Virus record (IMG/VR): IMGVR_UViG_3300048819_000038
Location: 1 to 60,909 of that record
Direction: 5' to 3' (one strand)
From: a virus
Lineage: Duplodnaviria; Caudoviricetes
Length of the DNA: 60,909 nucleotides
Part shown: positions 3,083 through 49,150 of the stretch, piece after piece
Layout of the letters: each line of letters starts with the position of its first letter
Position numbering within the stretch: position 1 is the stretch's first letter
Position numbers and translations under genes: made by a program
Notes under the pieces: model-generated
Database searches by the model: none
Seen by the model: the letters and a program-made list of their open reading frames with translations, nothing else
Told to the model about the DNA's origin: nothing

Positions 3083-3418
3083 GGAAAAGGTATTGAAAAT
3101 GGGACTCGCACTCTGTGCATTCATACTGTTCGTACTGTTCTGCTGCGGCGGACTCATCGTCTTCGTGTTTGGAGCGCAAGTCGATGACGACAAGGAAGGG
3201 GAAGACTGACAATGGAATGGTTACTGGTAGTTCTGGTAGAAGCGGTCGTGGAGGCTGTTATAGGGGTGGTAGTGGTAAACGCCATTACCAGGAAGCGTGA
3301 GTCGTGAGCGCAAATGACATCGGGTTCTTAGCCGCTACGGTAGTATTCGTAGCGGCTATTTTACTGGCAGGGAAATACATACAACCTCTGAATGATAGAG
3401 AGGATGGAGACGCAGGAG

Positions 3419-5225: not shown

Positions 5226-5242
5226 GTAACCAATTTGGTTAC
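5226..5242. repeat. 17-bp palindrome copy 3
   Basis: GTAACCAATTTGGTTAC between TAG stop and AAGGAG RBS. Confidence 0.95.
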
Positions 5243-10396: not shown

Positions 10397-10439
10397 TCAG
10401 CCTGCCCATATTACAGTATGGGCAGGCTGATTCTATTTT
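10397..10439 (+). terminator. intrinsic terminator
   Basis: TCAGCCTGCCCATA/TATGGGCAGGCTGA 14-bp stem plus T-rich tail. Confidence 0.7.
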
Positions 10440-10452
10440 AAGGAGCAGATAA

Positions 10453-11523
10453 ATGGAACAGATAGAGATAGATATTCCAGGTATTATCGCAGACTACGCG
10501 AAGTACTACACATCCACAGAACCGGCTGACTTCGGTATGTTCCAAGAGGCTATGGCGGGATTTCTGCATTACTTTGGTTTGGTAGAATTCTACAGAGGTA
10601 GTGTGAGGTTGGTAGAGTCTCCGTTGGAAGCCATGCGGTACATGAGCGATAGAGCAGTAAATAGCTTCCCTCGATTTGCTAAGATTTACAATTATGGGCA
10701 AGAAGGTTTTTCAATAGCGAAAGGGGTTGAATTCCAACGAATCCGTGCAGAAGTTTACAGGTCTATGCCTGTGCCTAGAAACAGGGGTGGTTTCAGGGGT
10801 GGTTTTGGATTAGAAGGCTTCTTGGAACCCGGAGTTCCTATAGCTTGGCAGGATGCACTCCGTTCAGAGGAGCAATTAACATCACTTCCCGCGCAGCAGA
10901 TGTCACCGATGCTATGCCTACAGCGTATCATTAAAACCCTTGAAGGTGAGTCATGGCAACATACGACTACTGATTACAAGGACGCTATCTCTAAAAGTGT
11001 AGGAGGTTTCTACGTTTTTAGAGATGGCGTCATTGCAGTAGACAGGCCCATTAGTCTTAATATAGACGACAGGGGGAGACTGCACAGTACCACGGATGCC
11101 GCTATAAGGTTTAGAGACGGCTCTTCAGCCTATGTGCTACACGGAGTGAACGTACCATCAGTATACATTACACACCCTGGAACAATAACAAGAGACAAAA
11201 TCACCTATGAGCGTAATGTCGAGGTTCGCAGATCCCTCATTGATCTATTCGGCATGGAGCGGTACGTCTATGAAATGTTCAACGGCATATACGTACATAA
11301 AGATAAGTACGGGGAACTTTACAAAGCAAGGCAGGATGGGGACGAAGACATCGCTATCGTCAAGGTCATCAACTCGACCCCTGAACCGGACGGAACCTAC
11401 AAAGCCTACTTCATCCGTGTCAACCCAAACGTGCGTACCGCCCATGAAGCAGTAGCCAGCACATTCCGTTACAAAGGAATTCCGCTCACCCCGGAACAGT
11501 ACAACCCACTACAGGAAAGCTAA
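10453..11523 (+). CDS. DUF6745-like domain protein
   Basis: GRLH...A.RFRDG...HGV.VP...N.EVRR...VINSTPEPDG...RV.P motifs. Confidence 0.75.
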   Translation: MEQIEIDIPGIIADYAKYYTSTEPADFGMFQEAMAGFLHYFGLVEFYRGSVRLVESPLEAMRYMSDRAVNSFPRFAKIYNYGQEGFSIAKGVEFQRIRAEVYRSMPVPRNRGGFRGGFGLEGFLEPGVPIAWQDALRSEEQLTSLPAQQMSPMLCLQRIIKTLEGESWQHTTTDYKDAISKSVGGFYVFRDGVIAVDRPISLNIDDRGRLHSTTDAAIRFRDGSSAYVLHGVNVPSVYITHPGTITRDKITYERNVEVRRSLIDLFGMERYVYEMFNGIYVHKDKYGELYKARQDGDEDIAIVKVINSTPEPDGTYKAYFIRVNPNVRTAHEAVASTFRYKGIPLTPEQYNPLQES

Positions 11524-11595
11524 CGAGCAATTCAGTAGAAAACGCTTTCCCCTTCTTGACGCAAAACACGTCTTGAAAATAGTACAGTTTACCCC

Positions 11596-11625
11596 TTGAC
11601 AAGATTACCCGTTTATGGGTATACT
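11596..11625 (+). promoter_or_regulatory. sigma70-type promoter
   Basis: TTGACA-18 nt-TATACT. Confidence 0.7.
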
Positions 11626-11631
11626 ATAGGT

Positions 11632-12095
11632 AATACAACCAAGGCGGGCTAATATAATGCGTCGCCTATCGAGTAACCAATTTGGTTACTAACCAGAAGT
11701 GACCAACGGTTAGGCTTCCATCCTGTACGGCCCTTCCTTGAAATTGAGAAGGTGACGCGGCGTTGAACCCGCTATAGAACTCTGGATGGCATCCGATGGC
11801 AAGCAGGTGAGAGTCCTGCACTATTTCGTCCTTCGGGGATCTAGTACTGTATCCTAGTAAAGCCCTTATCCGTAGCCATTCTGGTGTATGTCGGTGAAAT
11901 ACCGAATCGAAGGACAAAGATGAGAGGGATAGTTCAAAGCAGAGAACGCTTGCCGTTTTAGGCATGAAATCGGTGAGGCCCACTTACCGTCCGTCTCAAT
12001 GATCCCACCGCTAATCACGCAGTGGACTCGCAGATTGGCGAAGTCTGCGAGAGTTTCCCTATCCCCTACGTAAACCAAATACGTAGGGGATATTT
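11632..12095 (+). ncRNA. candidate large structured ncRNA, family unknown
   Basis: About 460 nt with no credible ORF, nested long-range helices, T-loop-like hairpins and a terminal 13-bp hairpin. Confidence 0.6.
11673..11689. repeat. 17-bp palindrome copy 6
   Basis: GTAACCAATTTGGTTAC. Confidence 0.95.
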
Positions 12096-12100
12096 CATTT
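12060..12100 (+). terminator. intrinsic terminator
   Basis: TATCCCCTACGTA/TACGTAGGGGATA followed by TTTCATTT. Confidence 0.65.
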
Positions 12101-12114
12101 ACAAGGAGAATAGT

Positions 12115-12360
12115 ATGCCATCCATAAACGTAACAAGGTCGGAGGATCGTCTTCGGATCTTCTCCTATCAGACTTGTATTAAGGAGTACTTCACGGAAGA
12201 CGGTAAGGAGTACTCGATAGGAAATACGACATGGTACTCTAAGACCACAACACGCCATCAGAAAGAAGAACATGTTTGGGACTGTGACTTCACTATTGGT
12301 GATGTTCCAAAAGGCACGAGAAGTCTAAAGAACTACCTGGACAACCAGAGGAGGAAATGA
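12115..12360 (+). CDS. hypothetical protein
   Basis: AAGGAG RBS, ATG at 12115; YSKTTTRHQ motif. Confidence 0.7.
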   Translation: MPSINVTRSEDRLRIFSYQTCIKEYFTEDGKEYSIGNTTWYSKTTTRHQKEEHVWDCDFTIGDVPKGTRSLKNYLDNQRRK

Positions 12361-12608
12361 TGGAAGAGAATAGTAAACTGGATAAACTGTTTATCAATGT
12401 CGTAAGGTTGATAGGATGGGGCAGGGCAGAAAAACTGATGGAAACTCTGGTACGTGAGCCTGGAACATATACAACAGTTAAGAAACTTATTGTCAGTGCC
12501 GCTATCAACTTACAGGCGGCAGCGCATGAGAGAGGGTTCCGAGTGTCTGAGGCGATAGAGGAACACTTCAGGGATGGTGATAGTAAGGATGGAAAACGAG
12601 GGTCTTAG
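12357..12608 (+). CDS. hypothetical protein
   Basis: ATGA overlap, GAGGAGG RBS. Confidence 0.6.
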   Translation: MMEENSKLDKLFINVVRLIGWGRAEKLMETLVREPGTYTTVKKLIVSAAINLQAAAHERGFRVSEAIEEHFRDGDSKDGKRGS

Positions 12609-12984
12609 GTCTGCACCACAAGCCTACGCTATGGCCCTCGTTTGGGAGAGGGCCAAGCGTTTGTTTCTCCCATTCGATTCCAGGGAGAAGGATACTACCG
12701 GCTATCAAATGATCGTACAGTTAGTGGATGGTAAGCCTACTGGAAAGGCACACATTAACAAGCCGGATAAGTCCAGAGACAGGGAACTCACACTCTCCAA
12801 TAAAGGATACTACAAAGTAAACCTATCGACAGGAGAGTGTGACTGCTACCACTATGAGAAGAATGGTTACTGCAAGCACAGTATGGCCGCGAAGTGGTGG
12901 CCTGCAACCTATCACCATGAACTGATCCCGTCCAAGAATGGGAAGTACGCATTCGTAAGGTTCACAGAAAGGAAGGCAAAGTGA
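12574..12984 (+). CDS. SWIM zinc-finger protein
   Basis: YKV...CDC...CKH pattern. Confidence 0.75.
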   Translation: MVIVRMENEGLRSAPQAYAMALVWERAKRLFLPFDSREKDTTGYQMIVQLVDGKPTGKAHINKPDKSRDRELTLSNKGYYKVNLSTGECDCYHYEKNGYCKHSMAAKWWPATYHHELIPSKNGKYAFVRFTERKAK

Positions 12985-13176
12985 AATACATAAATTCATT
13001 CTCACACTGTTCGTAACTACGACTATGGAGAAGTACGTGAATGAAGTTATCTTCTTCCAACCATCCGAGGAAGGAGTAGCTTACTCTGAAAAAGAGGAAG
13101 ATATGGACATAAGTATGGAGTATATTCGAGTTACCCAGGATGGGGAAATGGAATTCATTTACAAAGGAGAAATCAA

Positions 13177-13983
13177 GTGACAGAGGCTAGGGGTTGCGGA
13201 AATAGCAGAGTTCAGGGCGGCGTGTATTTAGTCACCAAATTGGTTACTAACGGGAAGCCACTAGAGGATTTCTTGATAGACCCACCTGTGACTGTACCGG
13301 AGAACCTACACGTACCGTACCAGGGGATGACTACTTTCGAGAGAGAGCAGGTATGCCCAAAGTGTATAGGCGATCATAAGAAGTTTCAGTCCTATATGAG
13401 CATGGGCTATCGGTGTGATCTGTGCAATGGGGAGGGTAAGATAAAGGTTCACCATATAGCCGACCACATAGGAACTTCCCACTATCCACACCCGATAGAT
13501 GACATCGAGGAGGTGCGTGCGGTTGGTTCCTCTCGGCGTATCCCTAGCAACTTTCCATTTCACCTACTGACGAAGGAGAGCAGGCACTTCCGTTGTCACG
13601 AAAAGTCTTATATCCACAACTGGATGGAGTATGGTAGGTGGTGGGGATGCCCCAAGAGACACCCACTTCATTTGCCACCGTGGGCGCATCCTAAGTTTGA
13701 GGATATGTGCATCGGAATGCTATGGGAAGACTATGACCCGCCTATGCTTGATGGTGGTGGAGGGTCTACAGACAATCCAGGGATTACAGTAAACTTGCCT
13801 TGTGGTAAGACTTTCAACTGTAATCGTCGTCCGTTCGGTGTAAAGCCAGACTATAGCAGAGCATTCTACATGGCTTTACCTATCTCCAGCATCGACGTAT
13901 TGACCTCTAGGACGGGCGTACACGAGGCAAACTACGAGAGGGCTAGTAAATCCGGGTTGCCGGTAGAAATGGTAGGTGAGTGA
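13177..13983 (+). CDS. Cys/His-rich hypothetical protein
   Basis: RGCG...GGVYL N-terminus; CPKC and CDLC Zn ribbon. Confidence 0.7.
   Translation: MTEARGCGNSRVQGGVYLVTKLVTNGKPLEDFLIDPPVTVPENLHVPYQGMTTFEREQVCPKCIGDHKKFQSYMSMGYRCDLCNGEGKIKVHHIADHIGTSHYPHPIDDIEEVRAVGSSRRIPSNFPFHLLTKESRHFRCHEKSYIHNWMEYGRWWGCPKRHPLHLPPWAHPKFEDMCIGMLWEDYDPPMLDGGGGSTDNPGITVNLPCGKTFNCNRRPFGVKPDYSRAFYMALPISSIDVLTSRTGVHEANYERASKSGLPVEMVGE
13231..13247. repeat. 17-bp palindrome copy 7 (one mismatch, intragenic)
   Basis: GTCACCAAATTGGTTAC, encodes VTKLVT. Confidence 0.85.
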
Positions 13984-14561
13984 TGACATATCAAAATGAT
14001 CCGCCTGTGAAGATGGACTCCGTACTAGACGAACTACGTATGGACGAGTACCGTGATCCAACCCCATTGGAAGACGACGATCCTCCTACCTGGGAACAGG
14101 AGACGGAGTTCTTGGAATGGTATTTAAAGGGTATGACGGCCCTAGATGCCGAGGAGGGGCTTGTCAAAGAACAGTACAACCGAATGATGAACGACATCGC
14201 AAATTCCAAGCGTCTACTGATGGAATCTCACGCAGCAGAGTTTGAGAGGATTGCCCTAGAGCGTATCTCTCAGCAGAAAAACACAAGCCAGATTCGCCTA
14301 TTTCATGGGGACATATCTGCTAGGAAATACAGGTCTTCCATGCGGGTTACGGACAGTGATCTCGCCGTACAATGGGCACTACAGAACCGTCCTGAGATAA
14401 CCAGGACGAGGGTTACTGTAAACTTTATGGAGTATATCAAATCGGCAAAAGAGATGAGCGCAGAGACAGGGGAAGTGCCACCTGGAATTACCATCACCGA
14501 ACCGAAAACTGTGCTATACTATCCGGGTAAGCCGAAAGGAGTTTCCAATGAGGATGAATAA
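13980..14561 (+). CDS. Mu Gam / Gp157-like DNA end-protection protein
   Basis: Coiled coil followed by LFHG.IS.RK...W...TGEVPPGITITE. Confidence 0.65.
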   Translation: MMTYQNDPPVKMDSVLDELRMDEYRDPTPLEDDDPPTWEQETEFLEWYLKGMTALDAEEGLVKEQYNRMMNDIANSKRLLMESHAAEFERIALERISQQKNTSQIRLFHGDISARKYRSSMRVTDSDLAVQWALQNRPEITRTRVTVNFMEYIKSAKEMSAETGEVPPGITITEPKTVLYYPGKPKGVSNEDE

Positions 14562-14862
14562 CAGAGAGCCAGAAGATGCAGAAGAGGCAACAGAGCGATA
14601 CCTTCGTGCCATACACGCCATGCAGACCGGGGTGGCGTATATGCAAGAGTACGACCAATCGGAGAAGGACATCAAGCACATTCGCGTTGGGGTGAATTCC
14701 GCTCTTGTCAGCGGTGCAGCACTTGCCCAACTCCTTATCGAGAAAGGCGTTATCACAAGAGAGGAGTACCACACCGCGCAAGCAGACGCAATGGAAGAAG
14801 AGGTAGCACGGTACGAGAAGATGCTGGAAGAGAAGCTAGGAGTGAAGATAACCCTACTATGA
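14548..14862 (+). CDS. conserved phage hypothetical protein
   Basis: HAMQTGVA...KH.RVGVN...LLIEKGVIT motif. Confidence 0.7.
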   Translation: MRMNNREPEDAEEATERYLRAIHAMQTGVAYMQEYDQSEKDIKHIRVGVNSALVSGAALAQLLIEKGVITREEYHTAQADAMEEEVARYEKMLEEKLGVKITLL

Positions 14863-15755
14863 CTACCGAACTACAAGTCACGATGGATCTTCTTCCGGAC
14901 AAGCCCCTGAAGGGGAAGTTCGTGAAGAGTTACCCACTCGACAAGATACCGGACAATGAGTTTATCATCGGGGAGGATGCCCCGGAGTCATTGGTAGACT
15001 CCATCTTTCGACTAGGGGTGCTTACGCCTATCTTCCTGATCGAACTTGACAAACCACCGCATCCGGATATTGCGGTGATGATCGCCGCCGGGAGGAGGAG
15101 GATTAAGGCGGCAAGACGGATAGGACTTACCGGGATTCCTGCGATTGTATTTCCTCCTGGAACTGGCAGAGAAGTACTCACCCTGGTAGAAAACCAGGAA
15201 CGCAGTATGAATGCTGCCGCCGACTTGGAAGCGATAGAGACGCTGATTAAAGAGCGTCACGCGACCGAACACGACATCCGACTGGCAACAGGAATGCCTA
15301 TACAGACGATCCGTGCCAGGATGAAACTCACAACCCTGATACCGCCTCTAAAGGATCTCCTGAAGTCAGGAGGACTTCCAATCCAACTTGCAGAACGTAT
15401 CTGCAAGTTACCAGTCGTAGAGCAGAACCGATTTATCGTGGAGAGTGAAGGAGAGATAACCAATAAGACCGTGAAGGAGTTCTTCCAGGCAAAGAAGGAG
15501 AGTGCGGTATCAGGACTGCCAGAGAGCATGTTCAGTGAACCCGAACTTGAATCTTCCAGTCCTCCTGAAGAAGTAACCAATTTGGTTACTTATGGTGAAC
15601 CGTACTATGAAGAACCAGTTCGTGTTTACCCTATCCTTATGTCCGATGAGAAGTACGTAAGGTTCCTTCAAGAAAAGGAACCAGACAGGGCGGATATACT
15701 TATCATCGGAAGCGCATTGAAGTTCTACGCGGTACTGAAAGGATACAAGGAATGA
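14859..15755 (+). CDS. ParB/Spo0J-like protein (CTPase fold plus HTH)
   Basis: L.DSI...GVL.PI...IAAGRRRIKAA...IPA...VENQER, then an HTH. Confidence 0.85.
   Translation: MTTELQVTMDLLPDKPLKGKFVKSYPLDKIPDNEFIIGEDAPESLVDSIFRLGVLTPIFLIELDKPPHPDIAVMIAAGRRRIKAARRIGLTGIPAIVFPPGTGREVLTLVENQERSMNAAADLEAIETLIKERHATEHDIRLATGMPIQTIRARMKLTTLIPPLKDLLKSGGLPIQLAERICKLPVVEQNRFIVESEGEITNKTVKEFFQAKKESAVSGLPESMFSEPELESSSPPEEVTNLVTYGEPYYEEPVRVYPILMSDEKYVRFLQEKEPDRADILIIGSALKFYAVLKGYKE
15573..15589. repeat. 17-bp palindrome copy 8 (inside the ParB-like gene)
   Basis: GTAACCAATTTGGTTAC, encodes VTNLVT. Confidence 0.95.
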
Positions 15756-15961
15756 GAGTAAAATACGAAGACTTGAGACTGCATGACGTACTGATTAACG
15801 GGCCTGGGAATGAGTGCTTACAGGAAGGGGCCGAGTCTATCGTAAGAATAAAAGACTCAATATACTGCGTGATATGCACACAGGGGTAGCACTACCTGGA
15901 CGCCGACAAAGACCACGACGGATACATGATGTCATTTACAAAGAAGGAGAAAAAGGAATGA
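15752..15961 (+). CDS. hypothetical protein with an internal in-frame TAG at 15887-15889
   Basis: MRVKYEDL...CVICTQG*HYLDADKDHDGYMMSFTKKEKKE*; ATGA overlaps at both ends. Confidence 0.6.
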
Positions 15962-16061
15962 GTGGATCAGACATGGCAAGCGTGATCGTTGTAGGGATGG
16001 TGACAGTGATTATGATAATAGTTGGTATTATCGTGGATAGTGATAATAGAAAGAAGTAGGT

Positions 16062-17582
16062 ATGTGGAACGATCAACAAGAGGCTATCTTCTCACATATC
16101 GAATGGAGGGATGGGGACCTTATTGTTGAGGCAGATGCAGGGACAGGGAAAACCTCAACTATTACCGAAGCGCACCATCGTATGTTTCCAGAGATACGGG
16201 ACAACTCCGTATCTCTGTCTTTTAACAGGCACATCAATGAGGAACTGAAACTTCACATGCCGGAAGGCGTTCGTGTGAATACCATCCACTCCATCGGTAT
16301 GTCTGCCCTCCTGAAACACTTTCACCCTTCCTCGAATAGATATGTGGATAAGTGGAAGTATGTCAACCTTGTTGATGAGGCTTTCGAGTCCTTAGATGTC
16401 AAGGGTAAGCCTACAGAACTATGGAGGTGGAAGGAGGTATGCGTTGACCTGATTGGAAAGTCTCAACTCACACTTTCCGACACAGACCCCATGAACCTGA
16501 TGATTACCATGATGCACTTCGGGATAGACTCGACAATGGATCTAGGGCTGATGTCCAGGATCGTGACCGGGGCTATTCGCATAGGGTCGGATATGTGCAA
16601 CCGTGTGGTAGACTTCAATGACATGGTGCATCAAATCGCCATAGGGAGAGTTCGGGTTGAGAAGTACCTATCCGTTGCAGTAGACGAGATGCAGGACATG
16701 AACCCGGCGCAACAAGCTGTTGTATTTCACCTGTTAGATGTCGGAGGTCAAGTGTACGGATTTGGAGATTCTTTCCAATCCATCTATGGGTTTGCGGGGG
16801 CAGATACGATAGGGATGGAGACGTTCCGTGTACGACTCAATGCGAGTACCCTGCCTCTCACGGTATGCTATAGGTGTCCTAAGAGTCACCTAGTTCTGGC
16901 AAGGAAGCTGGTTCCCTCCATCCAGGATGCACCAAATGCCAGGGAAGGGATTGTCGAAGTACTGGCAAGCCAATGGGCTATCTACCAGAACTTTGGTTGG
17001 TCGCACAGTGATCTCTGGATATGCCGAACGACGGCTCCTCTGATAGAACACTGCCTCAACTTAATCCAGGCAGACATCCCCGCAAATGTGATTGGAAAGG
17101 ATATGGCAAAAGGGATGGCACGCGCCCTATCGGAAATATCCGACATAAAAGGCTTTACTTTCCGTGAGTTCCCCCGGTACTTAAACGAATGGCTGGACAA
17201 GAAAGTGGAGTCCTTTCGTGAGCAACGCAGGAATGAACTGGCTATCTCTGCGATGGAAGATACGGCACGGTCGCTTATGCATATCCATCGGAGGGGAATA
17301 GCGGAGTACAATGTCCGTAGTGTGAAGGGACTAAAGAACTACGCGGACACACTCTTTAAGAAAGACCCCATCATCGGTCAGGTATCCCTGGCAACGATCC
17401 ATCGCTCTAAGGGACTACAAGCCGATAACGTTTACGTTCTTAACCCGGAACAGTTGCCGCACAGCAAGGCGAAACTGGAATGGGAGCAAGAGCAAGAGAT
17501 GCACCTGGAATACATTGCGTATACCAGGAGTAAGAACGCCCTGTACTTCATAGGGCAGATGCCAAAAGGGAGGAGTGAATGA
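16062..17582 (+). CDS. UvrD/Rep-family SF1 helicase
   Basis: ADAGTGKT, VDEMQD, GDSFQSIYGFAGA, YRCP, TIHRSKGL, YIAYTRSK. Confidence 0.92.
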   Translation: MWNDQQEAIFSHIEWRDGDLIVEADAGTGKTSTITEAHHRMFPEIRDNSVSLSFNRHINEELKLHMPEGVRVNTIHSIGMSALLKHFHPSSNRYVDKWKYVNLVDEAFESLDVKGKPTELWRWKEVCVDLIGKSQLTLSDTDPMNLMITMMHFGIDSTMDLGLMSRIVTGAIRIGSDMCNRVVDFNDMVHQIAIGRVRVEKYLSVAVDEMQDMNPAQQAVVFHLLDVGGQVYGFGDSFQSIYGFAGADTIGMETFRVRLNASTLPLTVCYRCPKSHLVLARKLVPSIQDAPNAREGIVEVLASQWAIYQNFGWSHSDLWICRTTAPLIEHCLNLIQADIPANVIGKDMAKGMARALSEISDIKGFTFREFPRYLNEWLDKKVESFREQRRNELAISAMEDTARSLMHIHRRGIAEYNVRSVKGLKNYADTLFKKDPIIGQVSLATIHRSKGLQADNVYVLNPEQLPHSKAKLEWEQEQEMHLEYIAYTRSKNALYFIGQMPKGRSE

Positions 17583-17739
17583 AGTATAGAGCATTCAAGA
17601 AAGTCTACAGGAAGGCGAAGCTAAGCGTTGAAAGAAAAAGTACGCAAAACGTAGAGAAGGCGGTCTACGTACAATATCGCTATATTACTAGCAAGTGGTT
17701 TGATAGGTACTGGCCTAGAATCATAAAGGAGAAATCGGT

Positions 17740-17985
17740 ATGATAACAGAAACACACCCACGCGCCCTGTTTACCATCGTGAAGGAGATCCGGTCGGACT
17801 GGAAAAAGCCCTACTTCGGGGCTGTGCCTTATATGCAAGCAATGGATTGTATGTATGACATGAACTCGAAATTCGGGGCCGACAGTGCAAAAGAGATCGT
17901 GCTACGCTTCCTGTCCAATGCTTCTACTTGGAGAGGTGAGACGGCACGACGCATAAAGGCGGAACTCAAGGAGATGGTGAAGTGA
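17740..17985 (+). CDS. conserved phage hypothetical protein
   Basis: YFGAVPY...FLSNASTWRGETARRIKAEL. Confidence 0.75.
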   Translation: MITETHPRALFTIVKEIRSDWKKPYFGAVPYMQAMDCMYDMNSKFGADSAKEIVLRFLSNASTWRGETARRIKAELKEMVK

Positions 17986-18278
17986 CAGAAGTAGATCGCA
18001 TCAACCAGGAACAGGGATGGATCGCTCATCGGTGGACGGAAGACGGTCAAATAATCACACTGTTTCCTCTGACGTTTGGTAGGACTCGGATTGGGATTGG
18101 CTCGGATATGTATTACATCCGAGACATGTGGTGATTTTCGGACTTGGAAAGCGGTCTGCTTTCCTACCTACTTTGGAACCCGGAAGTAGATCCAGAACCG
18201 GGAGGATGGATGCGACATCCACCGTCAGGACGACAAAGACCAGAAGGCGATGCAAGCAAGGAGTACGTTTATGAGTGA
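17982..18278 (+). CDS. putative selenoprotein (TGA at 18132-18134, codon 51)
   Basis: ORF exactly fills the intergenic gap; DMW*F then EPGGWMRHP.SGR; SECIS-like hairpin 11 nt downstream. Confidence 0.7.
18146..18164 (+). promoter_or_regulatory. bacterial SECIS-like hairpin
   Basis: GGAAAGC-GGTCT-GCTTTCC, starting 11 nt after TGA. Confidence 0.65.
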
Positions 18279-19068
18279 GGAAGTAGAGCAGGTAGAACTA
18301 GAGGAAATTGACCTGGGTAGTCGGAAGATGCCAGGGTTCGTCAAGAAGGGTCTTGTCGCCGTTCAGGGTGGTCAATACTATCTCCGAGCGGCATACCGGA
18401 TCTTATGGATGCGTGAGGAAAGAGGGGACAGTTGGACGATACAAACCCAGGTGTTCTACTTCGACCCGGAGAAACAGTTTGTTATTTTCAAGGCGACTAT
18501 ACTGGACGAAACCGGCAGGGTAATCGCCACGGCACACCATGAGGAGAAAGCCGGTAAGCTGCCCTTCATTCGCAAGGCCGAGACAGGAGCCGTCGCAAGA
18601 GTGTTAGGTATGTGTGGGTACGGCACTCAGTTTGGGGATATGGACGAAGACGCAGACGGTACGATAGAGAATACCGCAGATGGGGCGCATGGCAGTAATC
18701 CGAAGGGTGCTCAGGCCGCAACTCCTGCGGTAAACACAGGTACTAAGAACTGTCCTTCGTGCGGTGCTCCTGCCGGAAAGCCACACGCCAGCAAGTGCGA
18801 TGTGGTACACAAGGATGCCTCACAGTCGCGTCAGGATGACCATACAGCGTCCAAAGACGAACCAATGGCAACTCCATCACAGACGGAAAGACTGGCTCAG
18901 ATTTACTTCGATCTAGGAATTACGGTAGATTGGGATTCCGAGAAAGGAATGTCGGCAAAGGAGTACAGAGAAAGAGCACACGCCGTCGCACCGGAGTATG
19001 AGGCATACAAGATACGCAAGAGGAACGAGACACCCGCGCAGAGGGCCGAAAGGAATGAGTTGAAATAG
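18271..19068 (+). CDS. single-strand annealing protein (Rad52/Sak-like)
   Basis: Y...R..W.RE...KAETGAVAR.L...GYGTQF, then a disordered C-terminus; next to Gam-like and helicase genes. Confidence 0.65.
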   Translation: MSEEVEQVELEEIDLGSRKMPGFVKKGLVAVQGGQYYLRAAYRILWMREERGDSWTIQTQVFYFDPEKQFVIFKATILDETGRVIATAHHEEKAGKLPFIRKAETGAVARVLGMCGYGTQFGDMDEDADGTIENTADGAHGSNPKGAQAATPAVNTGTKNCPSCGAPAGKPHASKCDVVHKDASQSRQDDHTASKDEPMATPSQTERLAQIYFDLGITVDWDSEKGMSAKEYRERAHAVAPEYEAYKIRKRNETPAQRAERNELK

Positions 19069-19388
19069 TGGAGAGTATGAAAAGGATCGTTGGGGAATGG
19101 GCAGAGGAGACATTCCCAAAGTCTACCAACGCTTCGATATGCAACCACCTGGAAAGGGAGGTGAGGGAACTGGAAGAACTATGCATGATACCGGATAAGT
19201 ACACGGATAGTTTTACTCTCAGAAAGGAGTTGTCAGAAGAGATAGCGGACTGCGTGTTACTACTCATGCACCTCGCGCACAGAAATGGAATCGACATAGA
19301 CAATGCCGTGTTGAGTAAACATGCTGTCAATGTCAGCAGAAAGTGGGGTGAGCCGGATAAGTTCGGGGTTGTAGAACACATCAAGTAA
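19068..19388 (+). CDS. MazG-like nucleotide pyrophosphohydrolase
   Basis: HLEREVREL...EEIADC...K..VN..RKW. Confidence 0.8.
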   Translation: MESMKRIVGEWAEETFPKSTNASICNHLEREVRELEELCMIPDKYTDSFTLRKELSEEIADCVLLLMHLAHRNGIDIDNAVLSKHAVNVSRKWGEPDKFGVVEHIK

Positions 19389-19395
19389 ATAAAAC

Positions 19396-19424
19396 TTGAC
19401 AACAGGGTGACAATAGTATATACT
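19396..19424 (+). promoter_or_regulatory. sigma70-type promoter
   Basis: TTGACA-17 nt-TATACT, with a palindrome 11 nt downstream. Confidence 0.8.
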
Positions 19425-19434
19425 GATTCCCTTA

Positions 19435-19451
19435 GTAACCAAATTGGTTAC
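19435..19451. repeat. 17-bp palindrome copy 9 (operator position)
   Basis: GTAACCAAATTGGTTAC. Confidence 0.95.
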
Positions 19452-22506: not shown

Positions 22507-22830
22507 ATGTGCCAAGTGAGTAGTATGTTTGAGAGAATTATTGGAGAGACATACGGGGAGTTCAAAGAGTCTATGCTGCATGAACTAGAAACTGCTCAGA
22601 AGGAAGCCGAGACTGCTTCCCGTAAAGTATGGACGGCACAGCACGCGCTTGCTAAAGCCAGGAGAGCACTTCAAGATGCCTCGGCAGAGAACCGTTTAGC
22701 ACAGGAAAGACTCTCCGTGGCTCTCGCAATAGCGCAGCGCGACGGGTATGTCTCTGTCCAAATGAACCGTCCTTCTTATCTAGGCGTTGCGCCGGTTAGC
22801 CAACCACCGGAAGGAGATCCGCTGTCCTAG
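22507..22830 (+). CDS. coiled-coil hypothetical protein
   Basis: Ala/Glu-rich heptads; start uncertain. Confidence 0.6.
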   Translation: MCQVSSMFERIIGETYGEFKESMLHELETAQKEAETASRKVWTAQHALAKARRALQDASAENRLAQERLSVALAIAQRDGYVSVQMNRPSYLGVAPVSQPPEGDPLS

Positions 22831-22927: not shown

Positions 22928-22956
22928 ATTATACCGTAGTATCTTCAGTATGTCAA
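22928..22956 (-). promoter_or_regulatory. sigma70-type promoter, opposite to the surrounding genes
   Basis: TTGACA-17 nt-TATAAT, perfect consensus. Confidence 0.8.
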
Positions 22957-22973: not shown

Positions 22974-23519
22974 ATGCCAGAAGAAGAGAAAGTGGTTACA
23001 AATCGCAGAGGGACAAAAGTGTCGCTGTCAGCGAATGATGTTCAAATAGGTACATTGGGGGCGGACATATTAAGGATACTGTGGCAATACGGAAGACCAT
23101 GCTCCTTAAATGAAATATACTACGCCCTCTATCGTGGAAACTTCAATAAGAAGAGACAAACACAATCCATACATACATTAACTCTGTCTCTTGGTAAACT
23201 TGTAGACAAAAACATGGTAAGGGCCATCCCAAGACCAGTAGGTAAGAAAGGAAGACCATCCGCCAGGAACGGAGGATATGGTCTTCCTAGTGTCCCAAAG
23301 CTGTATGAGGCTGCAAGGCCGAGAGAGTTAGTCGTCGCCAGTATACTGAACGACAACATAATACGACTAACCGGGCAGTCGTTAGGTTTTATCTTGTCAA
23401 GGATGAATAAAGATAACCAGTTAGGGATCGTACCAACGGATGACGTATCAGACTTTATGATGGAACTATCACAGAATGATACAGAGTATGACCACGACTA
23501 CGATCTGGAGGAAGACTAA
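22974..23519 (+). CDS. BlaI/MecI/CopY-like winged-helix regulator
   Basis: LGADILRILW.....S..EI...L...T.TL.L.KLVDK.MV. Confidence 0.65.
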   Translation: MPEEEKVVTNRRGTKVSLSANDVQIGTLGADILRILWQYGRPCSLNEIYYALYRGNFNKKRQTQSIHTLTLSLGKLVDKNMVRAIPRPVGKKGRPSARNGGYGLPSVPKLYEAARPRELVVASILNDNIIRLTGQSLGFILSRMNKDNQLGIVPTDDVSDFMMELSQNDTEYDHDYDLEED

Positions 23520-48126: not shown

Positions 48127-48205
48127 AATGGAAAGAACCATCATATGAGCAGTTGCTTTGGGCAGGAGTAGGTATACTATCCCGTAACCCATATAAAGTT
48201 GTATT

Positions 48206-48313
48206 CGTAGTAGGTTAGATTTGAACTAACGGATCGGCACTGATGTTATACAGTTGGCCTCACACGTAGGATTACAAGTTCTGCGTCGCATTTAACCACT
48301 CTGCCACTACTAC
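48206..48313 (-). tRNA. atypical tRNA-like RNA (~107 nt; loop CT-TGT-AA, Thr-type anticodon)
   Basis: Acceptor GTAGTAG/CTACTAC, D arm TGGCAGAGTGGTTAAATGC, T arm GTTAG-TTCAAAT-CTAAC; extended anticodon and variable arms. Confidence 0.6.
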
Positions 48314-48321
48314 GAATTATT

Positions 48322-48392
48322 TTGCCATCTTATCCGATTCGGACGGAGTTGCGCTAACCGGCTGCGCCGCACTACCTATGCTTCGATGGCAA
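48322..48392 (-). ncRNA. degenerate tRNA-like cloverleaf
   Basis: TTGCCATC/GATGGCAA ends, with GCA/TGC, GCGC/GCGC and TCCG-TCCGAAT-CGGA arms. Confidence 0.5.
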
Positions 48393-48399
48393 GCTTTTT

Positions 48400-48676
48400 G
48401 GGGATCGCTTACAGTCATTACCTTTCTGTGGTTCCTGCGTAGGCAAATCCCCCATCTTATTGTCAGGCAAGTGATGTAAGAGCGGTATTTTACAAGGTAA
48501 CGCTCTTACTTCGGCCCAACAAAACTTAGGAAGGAGTACTCTCGTCCATCATACAGACCGATCTGAGTTTTACCCACAGTGCCCCTTTCGGGATTTTATC
48601 GGGAACCTTCCAAGTGGTATGTTCTTTTTGCACCACATTTGCCTTAAAGACTATTTTGGTGTAGTTTTAACCACTT
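48400..48676 (-). ncRNA. four further end-paired small RNAs (48400-48452, 48460-48522, 48529-48611, 48612-48676)
   Basis: Each unit is closed by a 6-9 bp terminal stem, with 0-7 nt linkers. Confidence 0.45.
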
Positions 48677-48692
48677 CTTGCTATTTCTAAAA

Positions 48693-48767
48693 GTGCCTGG
48701 GTTGGACTCGAACCAACGATCTCTTCGGTATGAACGAAGCGAGGACTCCAGACTCCTCCACCCGGCA
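48693..48767 (-). tRNA. tRNA-Met/Ile2 (CAT)
   Basis: Cloverleaf: GAGG/CCTC D stem, CTTCG-TTCATAC-CGAAG, GTTGG-TTCGAGT-CCAAC; no encoded CCA. Confidence 0.85.
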
Positions 48768-48773
48768 TGAGTA

Positions 48774-48790
48774 GTAACCAATTTGGTTAC
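48774..48790. repeat. 17-bp palindrome copy 19
   Basis: Between the promoter and the tRNA 5' end. Confidence 0.95.
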
Positions 48791-48831
48791 TACCTACCCG
48801 AAACTGGCCCGCTAAGGAACGTAACATGGGT

Positions 48832-48860
48832 ATTATAACATACTTTTCCAGATTTGTCAA
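48832..48860 (-). promoter_or_regulatory. sigma70-type promoter for the RNA array
   Basis: TTGACA-17 nt-TATAAT with a TG extension. Confidence 0.85.
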
Positions 48861-49150
48861 GTGGTGTCTATTTCCTGAAAAACCATATTGTCAAAATACT
48901 TCGGTTGCTGGCCTCTCAATAGGGTCATAGTCCAGTCAAGGTGAATTCTCTCTTTGGTGGATGTACGGAATAAGTGCTCCCTGGTACGTGTATTGTCGGT
49001 CAGAAACAGTACCACGTACTTATTGCCATACAAGGCCGCATTTTTAAAAGCCAGATCAATGTTCTCGTTAGTACCTGCCACGCTAAGGTATGCTTCTTGT
49101 GGGTCTACTACGAGGGGCTGATACTGTCCATCAGTTCTAATAGCTTGCAT
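48857..49150 (-). CDS. hypothetical protein
   Basis: ORF between the portal gene and the RNA array. Confidence 0.5.
   Translation of the reverse strand: MQAIRTDGQYQPLVVDPQEAYLSVAGTNENIDLAFKNAALYGNKYVVLFLTDNTRTREHLFRTSTKERIHLDWTMTLLRGQQPKYFDNMVFQEIDTT

Follow-up and report, generated by a model that had tools for sequence, protein, structure and literature searches.

The stretch between the promoter at 11596-11625 and the start codon at 12115 is read here, tentatively, as a long, partly structured cis-acting 5′ leader or attenuator of the replication/recombination operon at 12115-19388, with no independent RNA gene. We prefer this reading to the others considered, while giving it somewhat less than an even chance. 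The window analyzed is the whole of an IMG/VR virus record (60,909 bp), and all positions are given in its coordinates. As a single sequence with no relatives the region is a candidate and not a discovery; as a terminator-bearing phage operon leader it would be a new example of an established type.

Between positions 1 and 24000 the plus-strand genes run nearly gap-free, and 11524-12021 is the sole stretch there of more than 124 nt that lacks a plus-strand ORF of at least 45 aa. It belongs to a gap of 591 nt (11524-12114, +) that extends from the stop codon of gene 10453-11523, encoding a DUF6745 protein, to the ATG at 12115 of gene 12115-12360, with AAGGAGA preceding that ATG; the first-pass annotation was right to single it out as the largest non-coding gap of the densely packed early arm. 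All six frames of the gap contain stop codons (7-14 per frame), and the two minus-strand ORFs that overlap it, 11666-11983 (105 aa) and 11866-12273 (135 aa), gave no match in Pfam, PHROG or a phage tblastn search. The region is non-coding. Because the tightly packed arm has no other large non-coding stretch, a function is likely. Four other accounts of the gap were tried and rejected. Coding under another genetic code fails on the mixture of TAA, TAG and TGA in every frame but one on the minus strand, and that frame carries 7 stops, TAA or TAG. An origin of replication would be expected to show iterons or an AT-rich tract, neither of which is present. A mobile or invertible element was considered from inverted repetition linking the promoter region to the gene start, which is not locally significant, with 13 of 4854 genome windows scoring equally, and paralogy with the non-coding interval 48193-48692 is matched in score by 43 of 200 shuffles.

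The promoter is of sigma-70 type (TTGACA, 18-nt spacer, TATACT; 11596-11625, +), matches at 11 of 12 positions and would start transcription near 11629-11632. Six sites of at least 11/12 occur in the window, against a mean of 0.67 ± 0.85 and a maximum of 3 in 60 dinucleotide shuffles, and the five of them that have TTGACA are all preceded by C (CTTGACA). Since the phage evidently uses this type of promoter, the site is credible, and its credibility is one of the grounds for reading the region as a leader. A non-coding transcript of ~470 nt from this promoter is plausible.

At its other end the region is closed by an intrinsic-terminator-like element (12060-12100, +), in which a hairpin at 12060-12092 with 13 perfect base pairs, a 7-nt loop and an energy of -20.0 kcal/mol is followed by the T-rich tail TTTCATTT. 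The 13-bp terminal hairpin described earlier is therefore real. That it marks a discrete gene is not supported, however, as only 22 nt separate it from the next ATG, and the same layout of hairpin, T-tail, AAGGAG and ATG, again with 22 nt from hairpin to ATG, is found between two protein genes at 10397-10455. The ribosome binding site AAGGAGA (12104-12110) and the first operon gene, an ORFan of 81 aa starting at ATG 12115, together occupy 12104-12360 (+), and the operon (12115-19388) also encodes a SWIM protein, a Gam-like protein, a ParB-like protein and a UvrD-type helicase. Plus-strand promoters of at least 9/12 within 11626-19395 are limited to a 9/12 match at 14161, which is in-gene, and a site at 15735, and the next strong plus-strand promoter after 11596-11625 is at 19396. 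With no promoter of at least 9/12 between terminator and gene, the operon would be transcribed only through the 12060 terminator. The parallel at 10397-10455 indicates that such terminators punctuate polycistronic units in this genome and have to be read through, so that they do not mark separate genes; the other strong plus-strand hairpin terminators are at 1240-1273 and 3329-3358. Given the 22-nt spacing, the lack of room for a promoter and this parallel, the ~470-nt RNA is physically the 5′ leader of 12115-19388. The order promoter, leader, terminator and ribosome binding site, with no further promoter before the gene, is that of an attenuator or riboswitch-type leader. A nearly promoterless 11626-19395, a terminator ending 22 nt before the ATG and the obligatory read-through implied at 10397-10455 thus all argue for a leader. 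A candidate antiterminator pairing can also be read from the sequence (GGGATAG/CTATCCC, 7 bp, 11926-11932 with 12059-12065), at what we estimate to be chance level.

Within the leader, the 10-mer TGGATGGCAT (11783-11792, +) is the perfect complement of the first gene's start codon and the 7 nt after it (12115-12124), as would be expected of a leader-encoded antisense RNA. A complement of at least 10 nt to the start region was reached by 18 of 3000 leader shuffles (p ~0.006, post hoc), no other of the window's 112 ORF starts has such a match, and in the fold of 11632-12170 the two segments pair with probabilities of 0.82-1.0. The rarity of the 10-mer in shuffles, its uniqueness among the ORF starts and its high pairing probability (at least 0.82) favor a leader function, and its significance, noticed after the fact, is suggestive.

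The promoter, the terminator, the absence of coding capacity and of any other promoter, and the complementarity are what this analysis established, and from them we infer each step of a possible mechanism. Host RNA polymerase would initiate at the near-consensus promoter and transcribe ~430 nt comprising a palindrome cassette near the promoter, a core that bears the two T-loop-type hairpins, and the pair of stable 3′ hairpins, before reaching the intrinsic terminator 22 nt 5′ of the first start codon. Many transcripts would stop there, yielding the ~470-nt RNA, and those that read through would express the operon. In the read-through RNA the 10-mer would pair with the start region and keep first-gene translation low until refolding, binding or cleavage of the leader. 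The terminated RNA would carry the 10-mer as well, and read-through mRNA could be its target in trans, as with P1 c4. Several points weigh against a cis-acting leader. No homologue was found, and hence conservation and covariation lend it no support. The p value of the 10-mer is post hoc, and the antiterminator candidates are at chance level by our estimate. Without the terminator the folding z is -2.9, and background windows reach -5.6. Finally, 430 nt is long for a cis-regulator, and by analogy a second promoter cassette in this genome (48860-48832, described below), which drives stable RNA genes, favors a stable RNA product here also.

The predicted fold is uneven. With the terminator included, 11630-12096 has z = -5.9 (+); with the terminator excluded, 11632-12055 has z = -2.9 (+) and -2.4 (-), against a background in 14 windows of 424 nt from the same genome that spans +1.3 to -5.6 (+) and +0.15 to -4.8 (-). 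The terminator-free folding energy is unexceptional, and the claim of exceptional structure fails. By part, z is -2.6 (+) and -2.7 (-) for 11632-11775, -3.2 for 11965-12055 and -2.46 (+) for the 121-nt core at 11800-11920, where 5 of 200 shuffles fold equally well. For the domain 11775-11965, which takes in the nested long-range helices of the first-pass annotation, z is -0.4 (+) and -0.9 (-), and nested structure more extensive than chance would give is not supported. The four nested long-range helices that it listed are all present in the sequence, but they fared differently. The helix GTCCTTCG/CGAAGGAC (11828-11915, +), which encloses three small hairpins including that at 11891-11905, is stable, with pair probabilities of 0.84-0.99, whereas CCATCC/GGATGG, GATGGCAAGC/GCTTGCCGTT and ACTATTTC/GGGATAGT have ensemble probabilities of ~0, and imposing all four costs 7.5 kcal/mol (-158.1 against -165.6). 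GATGGCAAGC shares 2 nt with the GCAGG hairpin. The local hairpins that it quoted are all in the sequence and ensemble-stable: both T-loop-type hairpins, CGGTGAG/CTTACCG and CTCGCAGA/TCTGCGAG have, like GTCCTTCG/CGAAGGAC and the terminator, p >= 0.84 for most pairs. The two 3′ hairpins, CGGTGAG/CTTACCG at 11971-11989 and CTCGCAGA/TCTGCGAG at 12027-12051 (together 11971-12051, +), mostly reach pair probabilities of at least 0.96. The minimum-free-energy structure also predicts a 5′ domain (11643-11773, +), a long irregular hairpin around the palindrome.

The most distinctive feature of the region is its two GGUGARANNCC hairpins. One, GCAGG-TGAGAGT-CCTGC (11803-11819, +; pair probability 0.99), contains the T-loop-type sequence GGUGAGAGUCC; for the other, at 11891-11905, a stem of 5 bp closed by the 5-nt loop GAAAT is an alternative reading. 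Across both strands of the 60.9-kb window, only five hairpins combine a 7-nt UGARANN loop with a stem of at least 4 bp, and two of the five are here, so that the T-loop-like UGARA loops already remarked on are indeed clustered. Such clustering (2/5, in strands totaling 122 kb) would be compatible with a folded domain for binding or sensing. The loops, UGAGAGU and UGAAAUA, differ from the canonical UUCRANN of the T-arms of the window's tRNAs.

At gathering thresholds, Rfam 15 recognizes tRNA-Met alone in the whole window. Across 11450-12200 (751 nt) at E <= 10 it returns five weak matches and nothing else: Acido-1 and RT-6, both on the minus strand, MIR1862, which hits the terminator hairpin twice, and the AdoCbl riboswitch (clan CL00101). 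The last scores 16.2 bits against a gathering threshold of 50 (E = 3.1 in 751 nt, 0.92 in 221 nt) and aligns with high posterior probability only in the region of the GGUGAGAGUCC hairpin; group-II-D1D4-4, at 9.6 bits against a gathering threshold of 49, covers 23 nt of the region of the 11803-11819 hairpin. This hairpin drives both the AdoCbl and the group II match, and it is a module known from large structured RNAs that establishes membership in none of them. In the same 751 nt, no Rfam 15 match at E <= 10 was obtained for ROOL, GOLLD, tmRNA, RNase P, 6S, T-box, group I intron or ribozyme models, and neither ARAGORN nor Rfam found a tRNA or tmRNA. The earlier failure to place the RNA among tmRNA, RNase P, 6S or introns is thereby backed by a search that gave only sub-gathering matches, and the kinship suggested with ROOL and GOLLD finds no covariance-model match. 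By these comparisons no known family appears to hold this RNA, and one sequence cannot define a new family.

Searches for homologues were negative at several levels. A blastn search in distant mode with 11540-12110 found no match in 50,697 phage records, and neither the two flanking proteins nor a 474-aa terminase-like protein had a relative among viral contigs. The helicase query listed at least 80 metagenome loci, with identities of no more than 35% among the matches listed, and 80 loci in viral contigs, with no more than 33%; the P0123 query gave one locus, at 30% identity. An nhmmer search with the RNA against 80 of these loci, and then against 339 loci (3.45 Mb), found nothing at E <= 1. 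Pattern scans returned no match to the two T-loops in viral contigs, and none to the palindrome plus T-loop in metagenome contigs. Palindrome-bearing viral contigs have no protein in common with the window, 183 stop-to-stop ORFs of at least 90 aa having given no match against 34 loci other than the window's own (L009-L042), and five palindrome-bearing proviruses showed no RNA match past the palindrome itself. Among 401 genomes of the likely host order, a BLAST search with 11695-12059 hit 21, over at most 36 nt at E <= 0.05, which is the chance expectation; the DUF6745 query found only its C-terminal domain, in 8, and the helicase query found a match in one, at 31%. A single-sequence covariance model (R1, 11800-11920), for which the sole positive control was the window itself, hit none of 151 genomes. 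Apart from the palindrome, no complementarity of 12 nt or more to the rest of the phage was detected.

The 19-mer of the first hairpin occurs in two viral contigs, L009 and L010, which have nothing else in common with the region; model R1 gives them only 19 and 17 bits. In L010 the identical 19-nt hairpin lies within a non-coding stretch of ~400 nt (150-552) of an otherwise unrelated contig. Directly past the hairpin is a tRNA-like minihelix that scores 33.1 bits (E = 1.4e-11) against the tmRNA model, matching that model at its two ends, and a second T-arm-like element follows, the notable spans being 224-296 and 405-458.

The first-pass annotation favored a large structured RNA with its own promoter and terminator, possibly of a new family. 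On this reading a stable, stand-alone RNA of ~470 nt, possibly processed, would found such a family and act in trans on a host or phage target. We consider this possible but rather unlikely. It is favored by the ORF-free interval between a strong promoter and a strong hairpin terminator, and by the clustering of the two GGUGARANNCC hairpins, the module behind the weak AdoCbl and group II matches. The other promoter-palindrome cassette, with its tRNA-Met and tRNA-like gene transcribed as stable RNAs before protein genes, also speaks for it, and the failure of any Rfam family to match would make such an RNA new. Conversely, the downstream operon has no promoter of its own and terminators of this type also stand between protein genes; three of the four long-range helices are thermodynamically unsupported and the central domain has z = -0.4; no homologue came from the phage records, the contig pattern scans, the 339 loci or the 401 and 151 genomes; and, the palindrome aside, the phage offers no 12-nt complement elsewhere as a target. 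The bolder version, in which this phage, probably one of Verrucomicrobiota, carries the founding example of a hitherto undescribed class of large structured phage RNAs, built around the two GGUGARANNCC hairpins and serving either as a signal sensor that gates the replication module or as a stable trans-acting RNA, seems to us unlikely. We judge it just as improbable that the region has no function at the RNA level, being regulatory or spacer DNA (a promoter, operator-like sites and a punctuating terminator) or the remnant of a lost gene with incidental hairpins. Its terminator-free folding is indeed unexceptional and alike on the two strands (-2.9 against -2.4), helices of 6-10 bp are by our estimate expected by chance in 470 nt, and nothing is conserved in phage records, host-order genomes or the 339 loci. 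However, 430 nt of inert DNA would be unusual in an arm that is otherwise gap-free, the marks of an origin are absent, and no remnant of a protein is seen, the minus-strand ORFs having neither family nor phage match; the clustered T-loop-type hairpins and an anti-start-codon match that is unlikely by chance also tell against it.

A further possibility is that passage of the arm's terminators is decided by processive antitermination, through a put- or nut-like leader RNA, or by leader-peptide attenuation. The arm has four strong plus-strand terminators (1240, 3329, 10397 and 12060) and only two strong promoters, which calls for some mechanism of read-through. Short ORFs are visible in the frame translations, an example of a candidate leader peptide being a 24-codon ORF at 11999-12073 whose stop lies within the 5′ arm of the terminator, and 11891-11905 admits the alternative reading noted above, a GAAAT loop on 5 bp. 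The 24-codon ORF lacks a Shine-Dalgarno sequence, though, and none of the 18 neighboring early-arm proteins scanned, most of which have no family at all, is recognizably N-, Q- or LoaP-like by Pfam. Comparative support is also lacking, and we regard this explanation as very unlikely.

Set beside known systems, a cis-acting leader at 11596-12114 resembles several and coincides with none. Riboswitch and attenuator leaders have the same succession of promoter, structured leader, intrinsic terminator, ribosome binding site and gene. Among them the AdoCbl riboswitch is nearest by sequence, since GGUGAGAGUCC aligns to the T-loop hairpin of its model, but the score is 16.2 bits against 50, the downstream genes are unrelated to cobalamin and the leader here is twice the size. 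The lambdoid leader from PR′ to tR′ and the put leader of HK022 consist of a strong promoter and a short terminated leader ahead of an operon that has no other promoter and needs read-through. The layout here (promoter, terminator, promoterless operon) is the same; unlike these, however, it shows no recognizable Q- or N-like protein and no qut or put site, its leader is 2-6 times longer, and it precedes an early/replication module instead of a late one. At ~77 nt the c4 RNA is small; it arises by processing and has two short matches to its target. In one published account, c4 of P1 and P7 is an antisense RNA whose sequence lies 5′ of its target within one transcription unit and complements the ribosome binding site or start region of the first downstream gene (PMC12197685). 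The leader described here likewise complements a start region (11783-11792 with 12115-12124) in the way that c4 represses the icd-ant operon; unlike c4, it is ~470 nt long and has a single 10-mer, and its processing and trans action are conjectural. In phage and prophage DNA, tRNA genes are frequent near ROOL and GOLLD. These two RNAs are described, in the account consulted, as frequent in phages and of unknown function (PMC12286853). The RNA here is similarly large, non-coding and phage-borne, but it has no match to either model at E <= 10, no adjacent tRNA gene, no homologues and only modest predicted structure. If the region is a leader, an uncultured peat phage would gate its replication and recombination genes by combining a terminator and start-codon occlusion in one T-loop-bearing leader, which could be a new riboregulator. 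If it is instead a stand-alone RNA, it would be a new large phage RNA beside the very few on record (ROOL, GOLLD).

Judged by protein searches, the phage is isolated. The closest non-self relative of the DUF6745 protein is 45% identical; that of the UvrD-type helicase is 74% identical and lies on a contig of 2412 nt, which was not among the helicase loci listed above, and the next is 44% identical. The 81-aa protein of 12115-12360 matches itself alone among 5.8 billion proteins. The gene upstream of the promoter (10453-11523, +) is assigned to DUF6745 through PF20530 (4e-41), and the C-terminal domain of its product is otherwise common in Streptomyces and Nocardia chromosomes, while the N-terminal half has few relatives. 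An identical copy of the sequence, without variants, is present in two peat-metagenome DNA runs, possibly its source. One such run contains a contig of 60,699 nt that spans the searched region and has nearly the same extent as the record, for which CheckV gives a completeness of 57%; in view of this independent assembly, the genome may be nearer complete than the CheckV figure indicates.

The 17-bp palindrome GTAACCAAWTTGGTTAC, one copy of which lies at 11673-11689, 47 nt past the -10 hexamer, occurs 24 times in the window with at most 2 mismatches, from 788 to 59350, or about once per 2.5 kb (for example 5226-5242, 19435-19451 and 48774-48790), usually flanked by A...T. Most copies are at gene boundaries, often immediately 5′ of TAAGGAG or TAGGAG, and in ~10 of them the flanking bases differ yet remain complementary, lengthening the stem. 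The exact 17-mer is also found 14-27 times per genome in five Opitutaceae/Verrucomicrobia assemblies of 3-3.9 Mb, where copies are sometimes paired with 45-80 nt between them, and the five proviruses carry 4-6 copies each with at most 1 mismatch. As the palindrome is common to the phage and these assemblies, the host is probably a member of the Verrucomicrobiota, Opitutaceae-like. The palindrome looks like a REP-like element of the host lineage or a regulator site, with a density in the phage 50-100 times that of the host.

A second promoter and palindrome cassette, with a spacing of ~45 nt between the two, lies upstream of tRNA-Met at 48860-48774 (-). Its promoter (48860-48832, -) is a 12/12 match, and protein genes lie beyond the stable RNAs that it drives, tRNA-Met and a tRNA-like gene. 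The intervals 11586-11700 (+) and 48765-48872 (-) align beyond their hexamers, sharing CTTGACAA and a GCGGGC block and then the palindrome 42-47 nt after the -10, and this suggests a duplicated promoter-leader cassette. The only tRNA genes of the window that ARAGORN and Rfam together reveal, tRNA-Met (48693-48767) and the tRNA-like gene (48206-48313, -), are 36 kb from the region. The tRNA-like gene, which ARAGORN and a default Rfam run missed, scores 37.4 bits against a gathering threshold of 29; its T-arm and acceptor stem are canonical but its anticodon arm carries ~40 extra nt, so that it may be intron-bearing or disrupted. Between the two genes, downstream of the 12/12 promoter and a palindrome copy, are ~380 nt of non-coding DNA (48314-48692, -) that have no Rfam match and do not significantly resemble the 11.6-12.1 kb region. 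Another perfect 12/12 sigma-70 promoter is found at 22928-22956 (-), in a 143-nt gap between the plus-strand ORFs 22507-22830 and 22974-23519; it points antisense into plus-strand genes and could be the source of an antisense RNA.
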